A DNA stretch of 64,000 nt, from NCBI GenBank assembly GCA_017520635.1, contig JAFXFI010000004.1, positions 14,857 to 78,856 on the forward strand. The letters are read 5' to 3'. Both the position numbers and the translations under genes were made by a program. Position 1 is the first letter of the stretch. Each line of letters opens with the position of its first letter. Under the pieces are notes generated by a model. It did not search any database. It was not told the DNA's origin and saw only the letters and a list, made by a program, of their open reading frames with translations. Source of the stretch: Clostridia bacterium. GTDB lineage: Bacteria > Bacillota > Clostridia > Oscillospirales > Acutalibacteraceae. Positions 3,118 to 32,612 of this stretch are shown in pieces.

Positions 3118-3462
3118 ATGAATATACAGATTTACGGAAAACCGAAATGTTTTGACACAAAGAAAGCAGAAAGATATTTTAAAGAACGCAGAATAAAAGT
3201 GCAGATGATCGATATTTCAAAATATCCCATGAGTCAGGGAGAGTTCAGAAATATAAAAACTGCACTTAGAATGAGTTTTGATGAAATGATAGACGAAAAA
3301 TCAAAGCTTTACGAAAGTCTTTTCATTAAATATCTGGCAAATGAAAGTGATAAGGAAGAAAAGATTTTTGAAAATCAGGCAATTTTTAAAACACCGATAG
3401 TCAGAAACGGAAAACAGGCAACAATCGGATATCAGCCTGATGTGTGGAAAAACTGGGAGTAA
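3118..3462 (+). CDS. ArsC/Spx/MgsR-family small redox protein
   Basis: 114 aa. N-terminal IYGKPKCFDTKKAERYF and C-terminal TPIVRNG...IGY match the ArsC-family pattern. GAGGT lies upstream of the ATG. Confidence 0.6.
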   Translation: MNIQIYGKPKCFDTKKAERYFKERRIKVQMIDISKYPMSQGEFRNIKTALRMSFDEMIDEKSKLYESLFIKYLANESDKEEKIFENQAIFKTPIVRNGKQATIGYQPDVWKNWE

Positions 3463-3559
3463 TTTTAATGACGGAGTGAATTGTTTTTCTGCTGATTATT
3501 AGTTCCGATCACTCCGTGGTTAAGGTTTGCTGAATTTTTGATTAAACAAACATTTAAAT

Positions 3560-3717
3560 TTTTGGTCGAGCTTTTTAAAAAGCTCGTGGGGTCAAGGGGC
3601 AAAGCCCTTGTCGCACTCCGCAGAGTGCGACATCTTTATGCACAAAAAGCGCAGGAGGGTAGAAAAACAGTCCTGTGTGACTGTTTTTCGTAGGGAACCC
3701 TCGCCGGGGGTTCCCTG
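3560..3717 (+). repeat. Five-hairpin structured repeat element, copy 1 (candidate ncRNA or MITE-like element)
   Basis: Five consecutive inverted repeats: cgagcttttt/aaaaagctcg, caagggg/cccttg, tcgcactc/gagtgcga, aaaaacagtc/gactgttttt, gggaaccc/gggttccc. The element is near-identical to the reverse complement of 14238-14397. Confidence 0.8.
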
Positions 3718-3748: not shown

Positions 3749-4246
3749 ATGAGTGATTTTGTAAATGTACATTTCCGTAATATGACGGAAAAAGAATTTA
3801 ATGATTTCTCAGAAGAAGAAATCAGAAGTTATGCAGAAGAACTTATAAAATCAGGTTATAGAAAACTGAAAATAACTGCAATGAGAGCATCAAGGAAAGA
3901 ATATGAGGAAACTTTTCCCCAAGGATATCATACTCCGGAAAATTATTTTTATATAATTCAGAACGACAAAAACGAAGACGTGGGAAAAATTTTTTATCAG
4001 ACTCATTATGAGAAAAAGGATGTTGCTTTCATTACGGAATTTGTTATAAATGAAGAATGCAGAAATAAAGGTTATGGTAAAAGTGCATTGAAAAAAATTG
4101 CTGAAGATGCAAGAGAGAAAGGCTACAAAAAAATGGGACTTAATGTTTTTCTGCATAATAATATATCATATCCCATGTACCTGAAAGACGGTTATAAAAT
4201 CGTAGAAAAAATTGATGGCAACGCAATAATGGAAAAAGATTTATAA
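3749..4246 (+). CDS. GNAT-family N-acetyltransferase
   Basis: I placed the start at the ATG at 3749 (GAGGAG 7 nt upstream) rather than the track start at 3608, which reads through the repeat element. The motif-A-like segment is CRNKGYGKSALKKIAEDAREKGYKKMGLNVF. Confidence 0.7.
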   Translation: MSDFVNVHFRNMTEKEFNDFSEEEIRSYAEELIKSGYRKLKITAMRASRKEYEETFPQGYHTPENYFYIIQNDKNEDVGKIFYQTHYEKKDVAFITEFVINEECRNKGYGKSALKKIAEDAREKGYKKMGLNVFLHNNISYPMYLKDGYKIVEKIDGNAIMEKDL

Positions 4247-12053: not shown

Positions 12054-13700
12054 ATGGGTGAAAAAATAAAAAAGCTCATAGGTGTTGAAGGTGATTTCAA
12101 AACTACAATTCTGCCTATGATAAATTACAGCTATGCCAACATGTACATGGGCGGTGCAGGATATATTATCGGAATGTATTTCACCGTTTTCCTGACTGAC
12201 GTTGTAAACCTTTCTCTCAATCAGGCAGGTATTGTTGTCATGATTGCAACAATCTGGGATGCAATAACTGACCCTATAATGGGAATTATTACTGACCGTA
12301 CACGTTCAAAGACGGGAAAACACAGACGATATCTCTTGTGGGGTATTCCCGTTATGGCTGTGTCATACATACTTCTGTGGAATTCATTCGGACTTAACGG
12401 AATTGAAAATCCCACCAAGACAATGATTTATTTTGTACTTGTCTATATGCTTTACAAAACGGCATATACAATAATCGGCGTTCCTCATACAGCAATGTTA
12501 CCGGAACTTGCTCCTGAATACAATCTGAGAACACAGTATAATTCAGTAGGATATCTTTTCAATTCAGCCGGTATGGTTCCTGCATTCGGAATTGTTGTTG
12601 TTATACTTTCACTTTTCGGTTCAAATGACAACATAACTTCTGAGTCTAAAAAGCCTTTCCTTGTAATAGGTATTGTACTTGCAATTTTCTTTTCAATTGC
12701 AGTTTTTCTTACCTATTCAAAAACAAGAGAAAAAAGTTCTCTTGATATCAAAAACGAAAAACTTGATATTCCTTACATCATAAGAGAATATGTACTTGTT
12801 TTTAAAAACAAATCTTTCAGACAGTATTTCTTTATGAGTCTTGCTTATCAGTTCTCAACAGGATTTTATGCAAACTCAAAGGTTTACTACATAAAATATC
12901 TTGCAAATCAATACAGCAAGTATGCTCTTTTCAATGCAGTCGCAGGTGTTGCGGAAGCGGGTGCATTCCCCCTTAACTATGCACTTACAATGAAACACGG
13001 CAAGAAAAAATGCGGAAATATTGTAACTCCTCTTATGGTTGCAGGTCTTGCAATCGGACTTATTATGCAACCGGGCGGTTCTTTCCTCTGGGTAGCGCTT
13101 ATGATGGTGAGTATGCTCCTTTATCCTTTCGGAATGTCAGGACTTGGCTTTGTTTCGACAAATATTTTTCCGGACCTGACTGACGTTGATGAGCTTATCA
13201 CAGGCAGAAGACGTGAGGGTGTTATTTCTACTTTCAGCACACTTATCAAGAAAAGCATCAGTGGTGTTATGGCTGCACTTGTTGGTTTTACACTTCAGGG
13301 CTTTGGTCTTGTGACAGGAGATACTGTTTCAAAATATGAAGAAGCAACAGGAAATCTTTTCGCACAGACTGACAGTGCTGTATGGGGTGTAAGAATCTGT
13401 GTTGCAGTAATCCCCATTGTGGCAGCAATAATTGCTCTCATACTTCTTAAAAATTTCAAAATGACAAAAGATGACCATACAATGATTCGCGCTGCAGTTG
13501 CAACGAAGAAAAAATACGGTAGTGTAACTCTGACAGAAGATGAGAAAAAACGTATTGAGCTTATTTCAGGACAGAAGCTTGAAAACACATGGCTCGGTCA
13601 GAATAATACGGAAGAACATTTCCTTGAAACAAACGAAAAAGGTGAATATATAATTCTTATTGAAATGAAGAAAGAGAAGGAGGTACTTGAGAATGGTTGA
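12054..13700 (+). CDS. GPH-family (glycoside-pentoside-hexuronide) cation symporter of the MFS superfamily, with a long hydrophilic C-terminal tail
   Basis: 548 aa. The signature DAITDPIMGIITDRTRSKTGKHRRYLLWG is present. I read about 12 hydrophobic segments, followed by a charged tail of about 80 aa. Confidence 0.75.
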   Translation: MGEKIKKLIGVEGDFKTTILPMINYSYANMYMGGAGYIIGMYFTVFLTDVVNLSLNQAGIVVMIATIWDAITDPIMGIITDRTRSKTGKHRRYLLWGIPVMAVSYILLWNSFGLNGIENPTKTMIYFVLVYMLYKTAYTIIGVPHTAMLPELAPEYNLRTQYNSVGYLFNSAGMVPAFGIVVVILSLFGSNDNITSESKKPFLVIGIVLAIFFSIAVFLTYSKTREKSSLDIKNEKLDIPYIIREYVLVFKNKSFRQYFFMSLAYQFSTGFYANSKVYYIKYLANQYSKYALFNAVAGVAEAGAFPLNYALTMKHGKKKCGNIVTPLMVAGLAIGLIMQPGGSFLWVALMMVSMLLYPFGMSGLGFVSTNIFPDLTDVDELITGRRREGVISTFSTLIKKSISGVMAALVGFTLQGFGLVTGDTVSKYEEATGNLFAQTDSAVWGVRICVAVIPIVAAIIALILLKNFKMTKDDHTMIRAAVATKKKYGSVTLTEDEKKRIELISGQKLENTWLGQNNTEEHFLETNEKGEYIILIEMKKEKEVLENG

Positions 13701-14166
13701 TATAAAAAAAGATAAACCTGAGCTTAAAACAAATAAGTTTTTTGATTTTCTTTTTTATCTTATTCAATGGACATGGGGACTTCCCGTGAATATTGTGGGC
13801 GGTATTGCCTTTTTAATCTGTACAAAAATAAAGAAACGCTGTTTCCAGCGTTTCGGTTATTCTTATATAGTTTATCTTCCGTGGAAATCAGGCGGACTCT
13901 CATTGGGACTTTTCATATTCATGAAAGATGTTCCCGAAAATAAAAAGTGGACTTATAACACACGTATTCACGAATACGGTCACACATGGCAATGTCTTCT
14001 TCTGGGACCTCTTTATTATATTGTAATTGCAATTCCTTCAATGATATGGTGTAACTTGTTTGCAAACTACAGAAAGAAAAATAACATTTCTTATTATAAG
14101 GTTTACTGCGAAAGCTGGGCAAATGCCTGGGGACAAAAAGGCAGTAAATTGAAAATGGATATTTAA
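13693..14166 (+). CDS. Small membrane protein with an HExxH (HEYGH) motif; putative zincin-like protein of unknown function
   Basis: ATG at 13693 lies 8 nt after GAAGGAGGT and overlaps the transporter stop by 8 nt. Hydrophobic segments flank RIHEYGHTWQ. Confidence 0.4.
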   Translation: MVDIKKDKPELKTNKFFDFLFYLIQWTWGLPVNIVGGIAFLICTKIKKRCFQRFGYSYIVYLPWKSGGLSLGLFIFMKDVPENKKWTYNTRIHEYGHTWQCLLLGPLYYIVIAIPSMIWCNLFANYRKKNNISYYKVYCESWANAWGQKGSKLKMDI

Positions 14167-14237: not shown

Positions 14238-14397
14238 CAGGGAACCCCTGGCGAGGGTTCCCTACGAAAAACAGTCACACCGGACTGTTTTTCTACCCTC
14301 CTGCGCTTTTGTACGCATTAAGAGTTTCGCATTCTGCGGAATGCGACAAGGGCTTTGCCCCTTGACCCCACAAACTTTTGAAAAAGTTTGACCAAAA
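14238..14397 (-). repeat. Five-hairpin structured repeat element, copy 2 (inverted relative to copy 1)
   Basis: Its reverse complement aligns with 3560-3717. By my count the 45 nt block from gtggggtcaagg to gcga has 2 mismatches and the 69 nt block from gcgcaggagg to ggttccctg has 2 mismatches. Differences within stems are compensatory. Confidence 0.8.
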
Positions 14398-14440
14398 CTT
14401 TCAAAGTTAAATATAAAACAGAACAAGTAGAAAAAGTCAT

Positions 14441-14473
14441 ACAAAACGGGAGTCGCTCCGACTCCCGTTTTGT
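14441..14473 (-). terminator. Intrinsic terminator downstream of glyQS
   Basis: The stem acaaaacgggagtc/gactcccgttttgt is followed on the minus strand by a T-run. Confidence 0.75.
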
Positions 14474-14485
14474 ATCATTTAAAAA

Positions 14486-15865
14486 TTAAAACTTAATTTT
14501 ATCTTCAATGTATGCTGCAACTTCGTCAATGGGAAGTCTTACCTGTTCCATTGAATCTCTTTCTCTGACTGTTACACAATTGTCTTCGAGAGAATCGAAG
14601 TCAAATGTTACACAGTAGGGAGTACCGATTTCATCTTCACGGCGGTATCTCTTACCGATTGAACCTGTTTCGTCAAAGTCTGTCATAAAGTGCTTGTTGA
14701 GTTTTTCATAAACCTTGAGAGCATCTTCTGAAAGCTTCTTTGAAAGAGGAAGAACTGCTGCCTTGTAAGGAGCAACTGCAGGACTGAGGTGAAGAACAAC
14801 ACGTGTGTCGTTCTTTTCTGCATCAATAACTTCTTCGTCATAAGCTTCGCAGAGAAGTGCAAGAACAGTTCTGTCAAGACCGTATGTAGATTCAATAATA
14901 TAGGGAATATATCTTTCGTTTGTTTCGGGATCAAGGTAGTCAATTCTCTGACCGCTGTATTCCTGATGTCTTGTAAGGTCGAAGTCTGTTCTGTTGTGAG
15001 TACCATTGATTTCGCCCCAACCAAAAGGGAAAAGGAATTCGATGTCACATGCAGCCTTTGCATAGTGAGCAAGCTTTTCGTGATCGTGGTAACGGAGATT
15101 TTCTTCCTTGATACCAAGGTCTTTGTAGTACTGCATGCCGTATTCCTTGAAGTAATCATAAAGGTCGTTGTCAGTTCCTTCTTTACAGAATGTCTGGAAT
15201 TCCATCTGTTCAAATTCAATTGTTCTGAAAGTGAAGTTACCGGGAGTGATTTCGTTACGGAAAGCTTTACCGATCTGACCGATGCTGAAGGGAAGCTTTG
15301 CTCTCATTGTACGCTGTACGTTGAGGAAGTTTACATATTCACCCTGAGCGTTTTCGGGACGAAGGTAGATAACGCTCTTTGAATCGTTTGTAACACCGCG
15401 GAAAGTCTGGAACATAAGGTTGAATTCACGGATGTCTGTGAAATTGTGCTTACCGCAGTTGGGACAGGGGATTGAGTGAGCCTTGATGTACTCAAACATT
15501 TCTTCTTTTGTCATGCCGTCTGCATGAGCGTTTTCATCAAAGTCGTCAATAAGGTTATCTGCTCTGTGACGCATTTTACATTCTTTACAGTCAAGAAGAG
15601 GGTCCGAGAAGCTTGCAACGTGACCGCTTGCTTCCCATACTCTGGGATGCATGAGGATGTCAGCGTCAACTTCGTAGCTGTTCTTTCTTTCCTGAATAAA
15701 TCTTTTTCTCCATGTGTCCTTTACGTTGTTCTTGAGTCTTGCACCGAGAGGACCGTAGTCCCATGTGTTTGCAAGACCACCGTAGATTTCACTGCCGGGG
15801 AAGATGAAGCCTCTGCCTTTGCAGAGAGCAACTACTTTTTCCATAGTTTTTTCTGTGTTCTTCAT
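14486..15865 (-). CDS. glyQS: Glycine--tRNA ligase, homodimeric class II type
   Basis: [34 protein letters not shown] is the typical GlyRS N-terminus. I placed the start at the ATG at 15865 (AAGGAG 10 nt upstream) rather than the track start at 15904. Confidence 0.92.
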
Positions 15866-30259: not shown

Positions 30260-31216
30260 ATGAAAAAGATTTTAGCAATGCTCATGGCAGTTCTCATGCT
30301 CGTATCATTCGCAGCATGTGGCGGCAACAACAATGAAGAAGAAACAACAACAAATCCTGAAGTTGTAACAGATGCTCCTGTTAATTCAGAAGGTGAAGAA
30401 GTAACAGATGCTCCTGAAGTAGAAAACGAAACAGAAGCTGAAGAAGTTACTGAAGAAGGCGAAACAGAAGCTGAAGAAGCTACTGAAGAAGGCGAAACAG
30501 AAGCTGAAGAAGAAACAAAGAAAGAAGACAAACCTGCAGACAAACCCGCAAAGGTAGAAAAACTTACAGCTGATAAACTTGCAAGTCTTATGAACTCAGC
30601 AACAAAAGCTGTTGTTTCAAATGGTAGCTACAGCTACAACAGAGTTTGTGCTTTCGTTCCCGGAAAGGGTATTGATGTTGGTGACAAAACAGCAACATTG
30701 AACAAGCTTATCGGTATGGTTGCTGACGACGCAAATCTTGACAGCGTTGTTGGCGGATTTATCGGAATCGGTACAAAGCAGGGTACAATGCCGAAGGATA
30801 AGGATTCTCTTAAGGATAACTACGAGATTAAAGCTACTGCTCTCAAGGGCTCCGACATCCAGAATCTTAAAGAGGCAAATGGTGTTTACTCCTTTACAAT
30901 TGCTAATGCAACAGACCCCCAGAAGGATAACAAAACTCCCGTATCAAGATTCACTAACGATTTCATCACACACAAAGAAGTTGTTGATGGTATCGCAGAT
31001 GCTCTTGGCGGACTTGCTAACCTGCTTACAGTTAACAGCACAAAGGTTAATTACAAATCAATTGAAGTTGAAGTAACTGTTAAAGACGGAAAAATTACAA
31101 ACATTGCATATTCATATACATTTGATGCTGTTCTTAATCTTAAGGCATTAGGCGTTAAGATTGATGGTACAGGTACAGCAACAACAAACGGTGAATTTTC
31201 AAATATCAAATATTAA
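30260..31216 (+). CDS. Lipoprotein with an acidic Glu/Thr-rich repeat linker and a C-terminal domain of unknown function
   Basis: ATG at 30260. The lipobox is LVSFAACGG. The tandem repeat is EAEEVTEEGET/EAEEATEEGET. The track ORF starts upstream at 30188. Confidence 0.6.
   Translation: MKKILAMLMAVLMLVSFAACGGNNNEEETTTNPEVVTDAPVNSEGEEVTDAPEVENETEAEEVTEEGETEAEEATEEGETEAEEETKKEDKPADKPAKVEKLTADKLASLMNSATKAVVSNGSYSYNRVCAFVPGKGIDVGDKTATLNKLIGMVADDANLDSVVGGFIGIGTKQGTMPKDKDSLKDNYEIKATALKGSDIQNLKEANGVYSFTIANATDPQKDNKTPVSRFTNDFITHKEVVDGIADALGGLANLLTVNSTKVNYKSIEVEVTVKDGKITNIAYSYTFDAVLNLKALGVKIDGTGTATTNGEFSNIKY
30281..30535 (+). repeat. 255 nt segment near-identical to 31456-31710; contains about 2.5 tandem copies of a 33 nt unit
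   Basis: A direct by-eye comparison shows only a handful of substitutions across 255 nt. The flanking coding sequence is diverged. Confidence 0.85.
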
Positions 31217-31234
31217 TTAGGTGTTTAATCTGAT

Positions 31235-31275
31235 TTACAGGGTTGTTGCATTGCAACAGCCCTGTAATATTTTTA
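31235..31275 (+). terminator. Intrinsic terminator
   Basis: The 16 bp stem ttacagggttgttgca/tgcaacagccctgtaa is followed by tattttt. Confidence 0.75.
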
Positions 31276-31295
31276 AAAACTAAAAGAATTTTTAA

Positions 31296-31415
31296 AAACA
31301 CTTGATTTTTTGTGATTTTTTTGTTACCATGATATGGTACGGAATATGATTATAAAGAAAAATATCCGACAAGTACAGCTGACGTGAAGAAAACAAAACG
31401 TTAGTAAAACAAAAA
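31296..31415 (+). promoter_or_regulatory. Duplicated promoter/leader module, copy A (TTGATT-17-TACCAT plus about 90 nt of leader)
   Basis: It aligns with 32499-32612. The stretch aaacacttgattttttgt.atttttttgttac.at is shared between the two, as are ggaatatga and a later block, acgtgagtaaaacaaaaa in copy B and acgttagtaaaacaaaaa in copy A. Confidence 0.55.
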
Positions 31416-31434
31416 TTTAAAGGAGAAAATTATT

Positions 31435-32373
31435 ATGAAGAAATTACTTGCACTTCTCATGGCAGTTCTCATGCTCGTATCATTCGCAGCATGCGGCGGC
31501 AACAACAATGAAGAAGAAACAACAACAAATCCCGAAGTTGTAACAGATGCTCCTGTTAATTCAGATGGTGAAGAAGTAACAGATGCTCCTGAACCTGAAA
31601 ACGAAACAGAGGCTGAAGAAGTTACTGAAGAAGGCGAAACAGAAGCTGAAGAAGCTACTGAAGAAGGCGAAACAGAAGCTGAAGAAGAAACAAAGAAAGA
31701 AGACAAACCTTCTAAAGAACCCGCAACAAAGAAACCCGCTAAAGAAGAAGGCGCAAAGCCCGTTTCACAGTGGTCAAAGCAGGAAATTCTTGATTACTAT
31801 AACAAAGCAGTTGTAGCAACAGACAAAAAAGCTCCTCAGGGACAGTCAGTTATGAAACTCGGTAACAACGGTTCAATCACAGCAGATGGTGCTATCGGCG
31901 GTCTCCTTAAAGTTGCATCTCCCATTATCAAATCTGCTCTTGAAAGAAACTCATCTCCCACAACTAATATTCCCGGTTACGGCGAAATCAAGATGTCTGA
32001 CCTTAAATCAATCAAGGCTACAGAAAAGAACGGTGTTATCACAGTTGAAATCGTTTCTAAGGAACAGACAGACGGTCCTTCAGCAGACGGTTCAGCAGGT
32101 CCTGTAGGTCGTGTTCTTGGTACTCTTGGTGATATTGAAGGTGCACTTAAAGAACTCAGTGCTGAAATTTCACGCGGTAGAGAAACAGTTTCTCTTACTT
32201 ACACAGATGTAACAGTTAAAGCTAACATTGATGCAAAAACAGGTATCATCACAAGTGGTACATGGCACTATCTTGTAAACATTCTTGTCAAGGATGCAGA
32301 TATCAAAATCAGCATCATCAGTGCTGCAATCAAGAACCTTAAAGCAGTGGTTGACTACACAGTTACATTCTAA
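31435..32373 (+). CDS. Lipoprotein paralog with the same acidic N-terminal linker and a different C-terminal domain of unknown function
   Basis: The lipobox is LVSFAACGG. The first roughly 90 aa are almost identical to the 30260 gene product, and the remainder is diverged. Confidence 0.6.
   Translation: MKKLLALLMAVLMLVSFAACGGNNNEEETTTNPEVVTDAPVNSDGEEVTDAPEPENETEAEEVTEEGETEAEEATEEGETEAEEETKKEDKPSKEPATKKPAKEEGAKPVSQWSKQEILDYYNKAVVATDKKAPQGQSVMKLGNNGSITADGAIGGLLKVASPIIKSALERNSSPTTNIPGYGEIKMSDLKSIKATEKNGVITVEIVSKEQTDGPSADGSAGPVGRVLGTLGDIEGALKELSAEISRGRETVSLTYTDVTVKANIDAKTGIITSGTWHYLVNILVKDADIKISIISAAIKNLKAVVDYTVTF
31456..31710 (+). repeat. 255 nt segment near-identical to 30281-30535
   Basis: See the entry for 30281-30535. 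Confidence 0.85.
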
Positions 32374-32389
32374 TAATTCTTAATAAATT

Positions 32390-32422
32390 AAGACTATATC
32401 CGAAAGGGTATAGTCTTTTTTG
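32390..32422 (+). terminator. Intrinsic terminator
   Basis: The stem aagactata/tatagtctt, with inner pairing, is followed by tttttg. Confidence 0.7.
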
Positions 32423-32498
32423 TATGTATATTTTTGTCATAATACCACATATTGTGTAAATTCGGAAACAAAAAATTAAAAAATGTTAACTTTTCATT

Positions 32499-32612
32499 AA
32501 ACACTTGATTTTTTGTAATTTTTTTGTTACTATTATAGGGCATGGAATATGACTAAAAACTATGGAAGTATTATAAGCGTGGAGGGAAACGAAACGTGAG
32601 TAAAACAAAAAG
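32499..32612 (+). promoter_or_regulatory. Duplicated promoter/leader module, copy B (TTGATT-17-TACTAT plus leader, running into the first codons of the SpoIID-like gene)
   Basis: It aligns with 31296-31415. In this copy the module includes a GGAGG RBS and the GTG start at 32596. Confidence 0.55.

Follow-up and report, generated by a model that had tools for sequence, protein, structure and literature searches.

What are the two hairpin-rich stretches that recur, in opposite orientation, between genes of a Clostridia bacterium of the family Acutalibacteraceae (assembly GCA_017520635.1, contig JAFXFI010000004.1, positions 14,857 to 78,856; this whole segment of 64,000 nt is called the window below)? 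The two stretches, copy 1 on the plus strand and copy 2 on the minus strand, are members of one repeat element family with about 170 nt per copy, composed of a leader, five hairpins (H1 to H5) and a conserved linker. With fair confidence, the element can be described as an undescribed family of modular, hairpin-rich, non-coding intergenic repeats of Acutalibacteraceae (gut Clostridia), and on the best reading this family resembles the class that comprises BOX elements, repetitive extragenic palindromes (REPs) and miniature inverted-repeat transposable elements (MITEs), and is not a new kind of system. As to origin and use, slightly better than even chances are given to a modular structured intergenic repeat which owes its distribution to mobile spread and whose retained copies contribute transcript punctuation.

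Two copies of one repeat element

A repeat search over the window returned two inverted-repeat pairs, 3549-3630 with 14327-14408 (82 nt, 88%) and 3645-3717 with 14238-14310 (73 nt, 97%). Pairwise alignment of the two copies yielded a 45-nt block and a block of about 70 nt, each with 2 mismatches, separated by a divergent spacer, 2 nt longer in one copy than in the other; the repeat as located in the initial annotation of this DNA, with its two near-identical blocks and unequal spacer, is thereby confirmed. Three conserved sub-blocks occur exactly twice each in the window at up to 3 mismatches, compared with 0.00-0.02 occurrences expected from shuffles, and no third copy was detected in the window by the covariance model R1 (see below). 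With respect to the extent of the element, the 3' end and the repeat as annotated hold, whereas the 5' start has to be moved from 3560 slightly upstream, as the conserved leader ACAT[AT]TAAAG starts at about 3550. The parts of both copies are as follows.

3550..3717, plus strand: copy 1 (leader, five hairpins, conserved linker), between an ArsC-family and a GNAT gene; R1 score 208 bits
3567..3586, plus strand: H1 of copy 1, CGAGCTTT-TTAA-AAAGCTCG, from the minimum-free-energy fold
3593..3610, plus strand: H2 of copy 1, CAAGGG-GCAAAG-CCCTTG, predicted fold
3611..3630, plus strand: H3 of copy 1, TCGCACTC-CGCA-GAGTGCGA, from the minimum-free-energy fold
3648..3662, plus strand: linker of copy 1, AGCGCAGGAGGGTAG, with GGAGG resembling a Shine-Dalgarno sequence inside, identical in both window copies
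3662..3689, plus strand: H4 of copy 1, GAAAAACAGTC-CTGTGT-GACTGTTTTTC, from the minimum-free-energy fold and also from the fold of the opposite strand
3691..3717, plus strand: H5 of copy 1, TAGGGAACCCTC-GCC-GGGGGTTCCCTG, GC-rich terminal hairpin preceded by GTAG, from the minimum-free-energy fold
14238..14407, minus strand: copy 2, 31 nt downstream of the glyQS terminator stem; R1 score 196 bits
14371..14390, minus strand: H1 of copy 2, CAAACTTT-TTCA-AAAGTTTG, from sequence and alignment
14347..14364, minus strand: H2 of copy 2, predicted fold
14327..14346, minus strand: H3 of copy 2, TCGCATTC-CGCA-GAATGCGA, from alignment and fold
14293..14307, minus strand: linker of copy 2, AGCGCAGGAGGGTAG, from alignment
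14266..14293, minus strand: H4 of copy 2, terminator-like, predicted fold
14238..14264, minus strand: H5 of copy 2, predicted fold

Base-pairing as the conserved property

Folding energies of -74.8 kcal/mol (z -5.9) and -70.9 kcal/mol (z -5.7) were calculated for copy 1 and copy 2, respectively, relative to shuffled sequence, and the opposite strand of copy 1 folds with z = -7.5. The paired nature of the differences between the two copies, claimed in the initial annotation, could be reproduced: in H1, CGAGC.../...GCTCG of copy 1 corresponds to CAAAC.../...GTTTG of copy 2, i.e. two compensated pairs, and in H3, TCGCACTC/GAGTGCGA corresponds to TCGCATTC/GAATGCGA, i.e. one compensated pair. The remaining differences had all been assigned to loops; they are found there, and also in the spacer. 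In the minimum-free-energy fold of copy 2 the H1 stretch is paired differently.

The wider search proposed in that annotation produced further copies in Acutalibacteraceae genomes, and the covariance model R1, built from 11 copies, scored about 95 full-length copies at 120-214 bits among the first 100 sources, besides a second tier of related modules at 16-77 bits. In the model-based alignment of 140 distinct copies, 96.0% of the pair cells are standard pairs, compared with 84.7% in column shuffles, none of 500 of which reached the observed value; when the partners are slid by 1-3 columns, 39-54% are paired, and 47 of the 55 modelled pairs carry changes on both sides. A structure-blind MAFFT alignment of 73 high-scoring copies gave 98-99.9% pairing for H1, H3, H4 and H5, with H2 being lower because its two length variants are gapped differently. 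Across the family, H1 has four covarying pairs and 99% of its cells paired, H3 has 4-7 covarying pairs with 98.5-99.8% paired and a near-invariant CGCA loop, and H5 has 96-98% of its cells paired. The stems collapse to a few discrete, fully Watson-Crick haplotypes that are recombined among copies: two major compensated forms of H2 (CAAGGG/CCCTTG and CCAAAGG/CCTTTGG), three of H3 (CACT/AGTG, CTCT/AGAG and CCGT/ACGG), and for H4 the forms CAGTC/GACTG and CATTCC/GGAATG, the latter in the subfamily of Pseudoruminococcus massiliensis. This implies some 15 or more independent double substitutions and hardly any broken pairs. Covariance-model alignment, haplotypes and MAFFT alignment thus agree that base-pairing is what is conserved, with compensatory change beyond that of the shuffles, and the claim that the element is non-coding stands as well, a peptide-coding role being ruled out by indels of 1-3 nt between copies.

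Conservation of sequence is confined neither to the stems nor to the H3 loop (CGCA), and extends to the loops of H2 and H5 and to the 15-nt linker AGCGCAGGAGGGTAG, which is present in every high-scoring copy. This invariance is partly an ascertainment effect, because the search patterns covered the linker; it also occurs, however, in secondary copies at these loci that the patterns had not picked out. A sixth, central helix between H3 and H4 is weak (86-89% paired, with many A.G and A.C cells). A candidate antiterminator pairing between GUUUU of the leader and the A-tract of H4 was dropped, as it comprises only 4-5 bp and does not covary. Similarly, the functional strand had been deduced from G.U cells outnumbering A.C cells; this was withdrawn once the copies had been collapsed to haplotypes, because the surplus could be traced to the doubtful central helix and to two U.G pairs that are fixed at the ends of H5. 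The data show selection for pairing in the five stems and for the sequence of the loops and the linker, and the compensatory change goes beyond relatedness, as is characteristic of a structured RNA or single-stranded DNA element. The hairpins may act as RNA or as single-stranded DNA; stem change restricted to Watson-Crick pairs would fit either pairing at the DNA level or the need to fold in transcripts of both orientations.

Search against known families

The Rfam comparison suggested in the initial annotation was carried out for both copies, and the outcome is consistent with an undescribed element: at gathering thresholds, Rfam 15 returned no match in the window or in L055 (loci compared with the window carry the prefix L), and in E-value mode the copy 1 region and the full unit of L108 gave chance-level hits only, the best being Plasmid_RNAIII with 26 bits versus a threshold of 60. 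Neither a BLAST search of phage and plasmid collections nor a gapped-pattern scan of viral contigs returned similar DNA; therefore nothing points to a phage or plasmid origin. A literature search by sequence, host clade and repeat type returned no description of the element.

These negative results also bear on an orphan guide-type or transposon-end RNA devoid of its protein gene, for example a bridge RNA, a retron non-coding RNA or an omega RNA of TnpB/IscB. Variable flanks around a multi-hairpin scaffold of about 170 nt, and the dispersal of the copies, would be in keeping with such an RNA, which is nevertheless highly improbable, given that HEARO, IS605-orfB and all other Rfam families failed to match, that no nuclease, recombinase or reverse-transcriptase gene is enriched beside the copies, and that the flanks are not variable guides, since several independent copies have one 3' flank module in common.

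Copy number, modules and mosaics

In species-representative genomes, an exact 20-mer from the linker/H4 region matched nine true copies and one chance sequence; the nine copies are spread over five metagenome-assembled genomes labelled Acutalibacteraceae, Oscillospiraceae or Clostridia with 1-3 each, all counts in these assemblies being exact-pattern matches. A slightly shifted 20-mer matched at least 120 metagenome-contig stretches. Among the matches listed, the following contigs and loci carry several copies.

QZMK01000006.1 (465 kb): at least 10 copies
VOFK01003700.1 (688 kb): at least 8 copies
QZMK01000034.1 (236 kb): at least 5 copies
L055 (within 6 kb): at least 4 copies

The high-copy host was identified by the housekeeping proteins of two of these loci, L071 and L063, which are labelled Pseudoruminococcus massiliensis, family Acutalibacteraceae; the 465-kb contig is assigned to a genome of this type. 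At least about one exact-pattern copy per 45-85 kb was counted for P. massiliensis, corresponding to tens of copies in a P. massiliensis-type genome, in contrast to the lineage of the window, which is low-copy.

The core of P. massiliensis-type copies is flanked by semi-conserved modules, at the 5' side a leader TTAAYATRAGTTCGATAAAAATTA or TTAGCTAAC...AAGACAnTTA, and at the 3' side a module ending in ...ATCGAACTCATGTTAA. The 5' half (H1-H3) is found joined to alternative 3' halves, the 3' half (linker-H4-H5) occurs alone in L048, and dense mosaics, as in L055, combine the core with other hairpin modules in both orientations. Interchangeable modules in different orders, the hallmark of BOX-like modularity, are thus present. 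Some P. massiliensis copies have an inverted end motif of about 16 nt, AGTTCGAT...ATCGAACT, which is missing from the L108 unit.

At L055:1-6400, short hairpin modules of six or more kinds, placed in either orientation, make up the mosaic, and many of these modules consist of GTAG with a GC-rich hairpin behind it. Between them lie small open reading frames (ORFs) encoding a Lin1244-like protein, a product with a weak PIN-like match and a phage tail-terminator-like protein; Uma2 and DUF3644 nuclease-like genes and a tyrosine integrase lie downstream. No tRNA or tmRNA was found in the L055 mosaic. In addition, a mini-hairpin of about 21 nt in the H1 loop (CACCAGCTTTGCTGGTG) constitutes a strain difference at one locus, which distinguishes L040:9176-9355, L083 and L091 from L037, L042 and L069, and a 13-nt hairpin is located within the H2 loop of L028, L045 and L086. 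Nested insertions of small hairpins therefore occur inside the element.

Gain and loss of copies

Cases of gain and loss were taken from an all-against-all comparison of loci. The clearest delimitation was obtained at L108:7103-7360, a clean 258-nt insertion that includes the core and is absent from four otherwise collinear loci. Comparison with these four empty sites gave the junctions AATTAAAAG/TACAAG... and ...CCAACAT/CAAAGC, with no duplicated bases. In L019, a 364-nt unit is found in place of 29 leader-like nucleotides of L074. Copy 2 is present only in contigs of the same species (L131-L133); sister species with a GlyRS of 96-97% identity lack it behind glyQS, where the gene's own terminator and a GH16 gene come next. 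Whether or not copy 2 is there, glyQS retains its intrinsic terminator (window 14439-14475, minus strand; L141:3880-3915). Synteny 3' of glyQS breaks exactly at the position of the element in the window species; this site therefore represents lineage-specific presence and not a clean empty site.

Taken as MITE properties, presence/absence polymorphism between close relatives (L108; L019 vs L074; the glyQS site) and a short, non-coding, multicopy, intergenic nature are both observed. Of the two readings offered in the initial annotation, a structured miniature mobile element and a small-RNA gene family, the former is better supported, as multicopy dispersal, modular mosaics, truncated copies and presence/absence polymorphisms speak for it directly.

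Genomic context

All copies are intergenic, and their neighbours are unrelated, ordinary housekeeping genes. In the window, no mobile or phage-like genes were seen next to the two copies, whose surroundings are as follows.

3118..3462, plus strand: ArsC-family gene (Pfam PF03960), upstream of copy 1
3749..4246, plus strand: GNAT acetyltransferase gene (Pfam PF00583), with its ATG 31 nt past copy 1
14486..15865, minus strand: glyQS (glycine-tRNA ligase), upstream of copy 2
14439..14475, minus strand: intrinsic terminator of glyQS, upstream of copy 2, from the terminator scan
13687-14166, plus strand: unannotated ORF converging on copy 2

The ArsC-family gene, copy 1 and the GNAT gene are thus all on the plus strand. 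Both copies had been placed just behind the terminator of the preceding gene; this is correct for copy 2 (glyQS) and does not apply to copy 1, as no U-tract follows the hairpin behind the ArsC-family gene and the scan did not report a terminator there. An 86-nt hairpin block (gacggagtga...tcactccgt) occupies 3463-3548, between the stop codon of the ArsC-family gene and copy 1. L003 has this block too; L007 lacks it, and its element begins 1 nt past the stop codon. Within the block lies TTAGTTCCGAT, a sequence similar to the 5' leader motif AGTTCGAT found in the P. massiliensis subfamily.

Orientation statistics were derived from 89 unique copies with crude ORF calls. Between co-directional genes, 23 copies are in sense and 20 in antisense orientation, 16 copies lie between convergent and 9 between divergent genes; all four orientation classes occur, and no orientation bias was detected (all binomial p > 0.1). 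The common orientation ascribed to the copies relative to their genes is therefore valid for the two window copies and does not extend to the high-copy subfamily, which is random relative to neighbouring genes.

In this context a cis-regulatory leader or attenuator has to be considered, i.e. a riboswitch-like or protein-binding-leader-like RNA that would control the downstream gene through H4. The GNAT start codon follows copy 1 at a distance of 31 nt and the rnhB start codon follows the L002-type copy at 27 nt; both copies share the orientation of the gene behind them and are conserved across species, and H4 resembles a terminator expression platform. On the other hand, copy 2 and many others have no co-oriented downstream gene, the downstream genes are mutually unrelated, so that the consistent position upstream of one gene class known from riboswitches and leaders is not seen, the conserved H5 follows the putative terminator, and a covarying antiterminator pairing is missing, the central helix being poorly supported. 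A leader function is accordingly rated as very unlikely.

Orthologous sites and selection in place

L003 and L007 are orthologues of copy 1, with ArsC-family and GNAT neighbours, and L002, L004 and L010 are mutual orthologues between an rbgA/ylqF-like GTPase gene and rnhB (RNase HII), where the element is located at L002:4506-4666, at L004:4832-4992 and also in L010. The element was compared with third codon positions at these loci.

Window versus L007: element 91.9% (147/160), third codon positions 70-73.5%, spacer after the element 58%, Fisher p 1e-7
Window versus L003: element 98.1%, third codon positions 81-92%, Fisher p 6e-5
L002 versus L004 (rbgA-rnhB locus): element 96.3% (155/161), third positions 60-62%

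To judge from these identities, the copies at orthologous sites are under purifying selection, because neutral decay of a dead selfish insertion would not give such values. Seen together at the level of sequence, the polymorphic copies indicate dispersal in the manner of a miniature mobile element, and identity at orthologous sites indicates selection in place.

The element starts 1 nt after the upstream stop codon in L007 and 12 nt after it in L002, and ends 27 nt (rnhB) to 31 nt (GNAT) before the downstream ATG. At these two conserved loci it must be read through in the sense direction, because it fills the gap between co-directional genes and no promoter was seen inside it, and H4 cannot terminate completely there, because the downstream gene starts 27-31 nt on. 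Inspection of H4 reveals an A5 tract, a core stem of 5-6 bp with 3 G-C pairs and a U5 tract, with U5 and stem conserved, and in copy 1 the succession of A-tract, stem and U-tract gives the appearance of a terminator on both strands. The proposal that H4 is an intrinsic terminator is hence plausible by sequence, with the reservation that the downstream genes are so close and that the terminator scan did not call it.

The discrete small-RNA gene of the initial annotation fared less well. On this alternative the elements would be genes for trans-acting small RNAs of about 170 nt, independent or processed, whose GGAGG linker and loops bind a target, for which C/U-rich RNA, the anti-Shine-Dalgarno end of 16S rRNA or an RNA-binding protein would be candidates; the genes and their candidate targets are alike regarded as unlikely. 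Strong covariation together with sequence-conserved loops and linker, and purifying selection at orthologous loci, agree with it. Multicopy small-RNA families exist, such as Qrr, csRNAs and LhrC, and provide a precedent. Furthermore, about one quarter to one third of the P. massiliensis-type copies are antisense to both neighbouring genes, and therefore sense expression of these would come only from a promoter of their own. Such a promoter was not found: the promoter scan detected no sigma-70-type promoter upstream of either window copy on its own strand, and the 89 aligned 5' flanks contain no conserved -35/-10 pair, the conserved 'ATTAAAAG' being a poor -10 box. In L007 and L002 the element adjoins the stop codon of the preceding gene, and the terminator-like H4 lies inside the element, ahead of H5, which has no U-tract behind it, so that neither the own promoter nor the defined 3' end of a small-RNA gene is in evidence. 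Module shuffling, half copies, mosaics and insertion polymorphism are atypical of small-RNA genes, and G.U pairs are near-absent at variable stem positions.

Proposed spread, retention and transcript punctuation

It can be rationalized that the family, as a modular structured intergenic repeat, would have spread as a non-autonomous mobile unit by means of an enzyme supplied in trans, and that fixed copies, including both window copies, would have been retained as useful transcript punctuation. The stable string of hairpins, above all the GC-rich H5, would block 3'-exonucleases in transcripts shared with neighbouring genes, and H4, with its A5, stem and U5, would give partial, orientation-independent termination. 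Copy 1 would in this way set the relative expression of the ArsC-family and GNAT genes, and copy 2 would insulate glyQS from the converging gene. REP hairpins and the bacterial interspersed mosaic elements (BIMEs) have been described as setting relative expression across gene boundaries. Confidence in this mechanism, transcript punctuation with H4 as a leaky terminator, is low to moderate.

Several results weigh against this account. As to mobility, no target-site duplication was found at the cleanly delimited L108 insertion or at the window copies, and terminal inverted repeats are absent from the window copies and not evident in the L108 unit, so that the element fails on two classical MITE features. 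Among 965 neighbouring ORFs, no transposase, nuclease or other protein family is enriched near the copies, and when these ORFs were clustered and annotated with Pfam the recurrent neighbour clusters comprised housekeeping genes only; an IS200-type HUH/Y motif (H-u-H...Y-x-x-N-Q) was not found in 1.18 Mb of loci, which is a weak test. Likewise, about 1.2 Mb of loci revealed no cognate autonomous element sharing its ends, and a search for long elements bounded by the inverted end motif returned nothing convincing. As to punctuation, H4, with its short core stem and 3 G-C pairs, was not called by the terminator scan, and the conservation of loops and single-stranded linker exceeds what a terminator or stabiliser needs, which suggests a specific partner. 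Finally, in H1-H4, G.U and A.C variants are equally rare after collapsing to haplotypes, and the folding strand is not indicated.

The last point leads to a purely DNA-level element, the single-stranded hairpins of which would be recognised by a HUH/Y1-type enzyme, as in REPs with their REP-associated tyrosine transposases (RAYTs) or in the palindrome-associated transposable elements (PATEs) of the IS200/IS605 type, or by a DNA-binding factor. It can be cited in its favour that the L108 insertion has neither target-site duplication nor terminal inverted repeats, that compensation is strictly Watson-Crick with G.U nearly absent, that the copies are randomly oriented with respect to transcription, and that the mosaic clusters resemble BIMEs. 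GTAG, the tag of REPs cleaved by RAYT (PMC3733652), is found directly 5' of H4, H5 and many L055 hairpin modules, with nearly all copies carrying it at H5 (CGTAG followed by GGAACCC...) and at H4 (GGTAG followed by AAAAAC...). However, a test for k-mer enrichment of GTAG next to hairpins was dominated by H5 itself and is uninformative, and GTAG REPs have been reported from Proteobacteria, Cyanobacteria, Chloroflexi and the PVC group and not from Firmicutes (PMC3733652). The Y1 transposase motif was not found in the 1.18 Mb of loci, nothing is enriched near the copies, and the two delimited insertions have different flanks on either strand and no common target sequence (two cases). Moreover, single orthologous copies are kept well above synonymous sites, which is hard to understand for recognition by a transposase alone. 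Altogether, a purely DNA-level element is held to be improbable.

A specific partner could also be accommodated if the core were a functional structured RNA, a new multicopy class of regulatory RNA in gut Clostridia, freed from polycistronic or read-through transcripts, with the invariant linker AGCGCAGGAGGGUAG, similar to a Shine-Dalgarno sequence, and the loops binding the partner. The latter might be, for instance, the anti-Shine-Dalgarno end of the 30S subunit or an RNA-binding protein, and the MITE-like spread in P. massiliensis would be only the vehicle. This view, to which a low probability is assigned, draws on loops and linker being conserved beyond the demands of hairpin stability, and on orthologous copies with 92-96% identity versus 60-73% at synonymous sites.

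Comparison with known repeats

In its working, the element would be most like the BOX and REP/BIME/REPIN repeats. A BOX element is composed of boxA, boxB repeated n times and boxC. Interchangeable modules that fold into stable hairpins are common to both. The present element differs in its five defined hairpins and conserved G-rich linker, and in the very low copy number of the window lineage together with orthologous copies under clear purifying selection. BOX elements of Streptococcus pneumoniae are dealt with, alongside RUP and SPRITE, as small interspersed repeats in PMC3049150, and like them the present repeats are small, non-coding and interspersed in a Gram-positive bacterium, intergenic, and devoid of a transposase of their own.

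With REPs, BIMEs and REPINs the element shares GC-rich hairpins, some of them after GTAG, stems kept by compensation and an intergenic location (PMC3116915, PMC3733652), and further the mosaic clusters of alternating orientation, as in L055, the lack of target-site duplication, and the proposed roles in termination and mRNA stabilisation. REPs, however, are single palindromes of 20-40 nt in hundreds of copies, whereas the element measures about 170-260 nt and has five different hairpins. A RAYT gene, which would be expected of a REP-RAYT system, was not found by motif search in 1.18 Mb, a weak test.

MITEs in general include Correia elements, ERIC and bcr1 of the Bacillus cereus group (PMC3184786). 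They can carry terminators and fold as RNA, and are likewise short, non-autonomous, multicopy and intergenic, and present or absent between strains; the window copies and the L108 insertion depart from them by having neither terminal inverted repeats nor target-site duplication. PATEs are miniature IS200/IS605 derivatives that insert at a fixed target and have one subterminal hairpin per end. The absence of terminal inverted repeats and of target-site duplication, and hairpins that would act on a single strand, are common features, but the element has five hairpins, no TnpA gene was found in the loci examined, and the two insertion sites available lack a conserved target tetra- or pentanucleotide. 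For IS200/IS605 relatives, reference is made to the HUH superfamily (PMC6006769).

In well-studied bacteria, REP, BOX and Correia repeats shape operon expression, genome rearrangement and strain typing; of comparable repeats in the abundant, mostly uncultured gut Oscillospirales almost nothing has been described. As the family is mobile-like in one lineage and conserved and selected in another, the question of selfish versus domesticated DNA becomes directly testable, with P. massiliensis being cultivable. For annotation, some 170 nt of strongly structured intergenic DNA can be recognised that metagenome screens would otherwise take for small-RNA genes, terminators or riboswitch candidates. 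If linker and loops were to bind a specific partner, they would open a route to a new RNA-protein or DNA-protein system.

Other repeats in the same clade

A hairpin array of another kind, whose short hairpins all end in ATATCAC or ATTTCAC, forms a 182-nt insertion just upstream of a gene start at L010:2091-2272, as compared with about 6546-6555 of L002, the two genomes being near-identical; this array may represent another mobile hairpin-array family of the same clade. In the window itself, units of about 1.2 kb are repeated in tandem at 30260-32611. They share 292 nt at 93% as well as upstream conserved blocks of 84 nt and 30 nt, and are probably tandem paralogous genes with a common leader or promoter.

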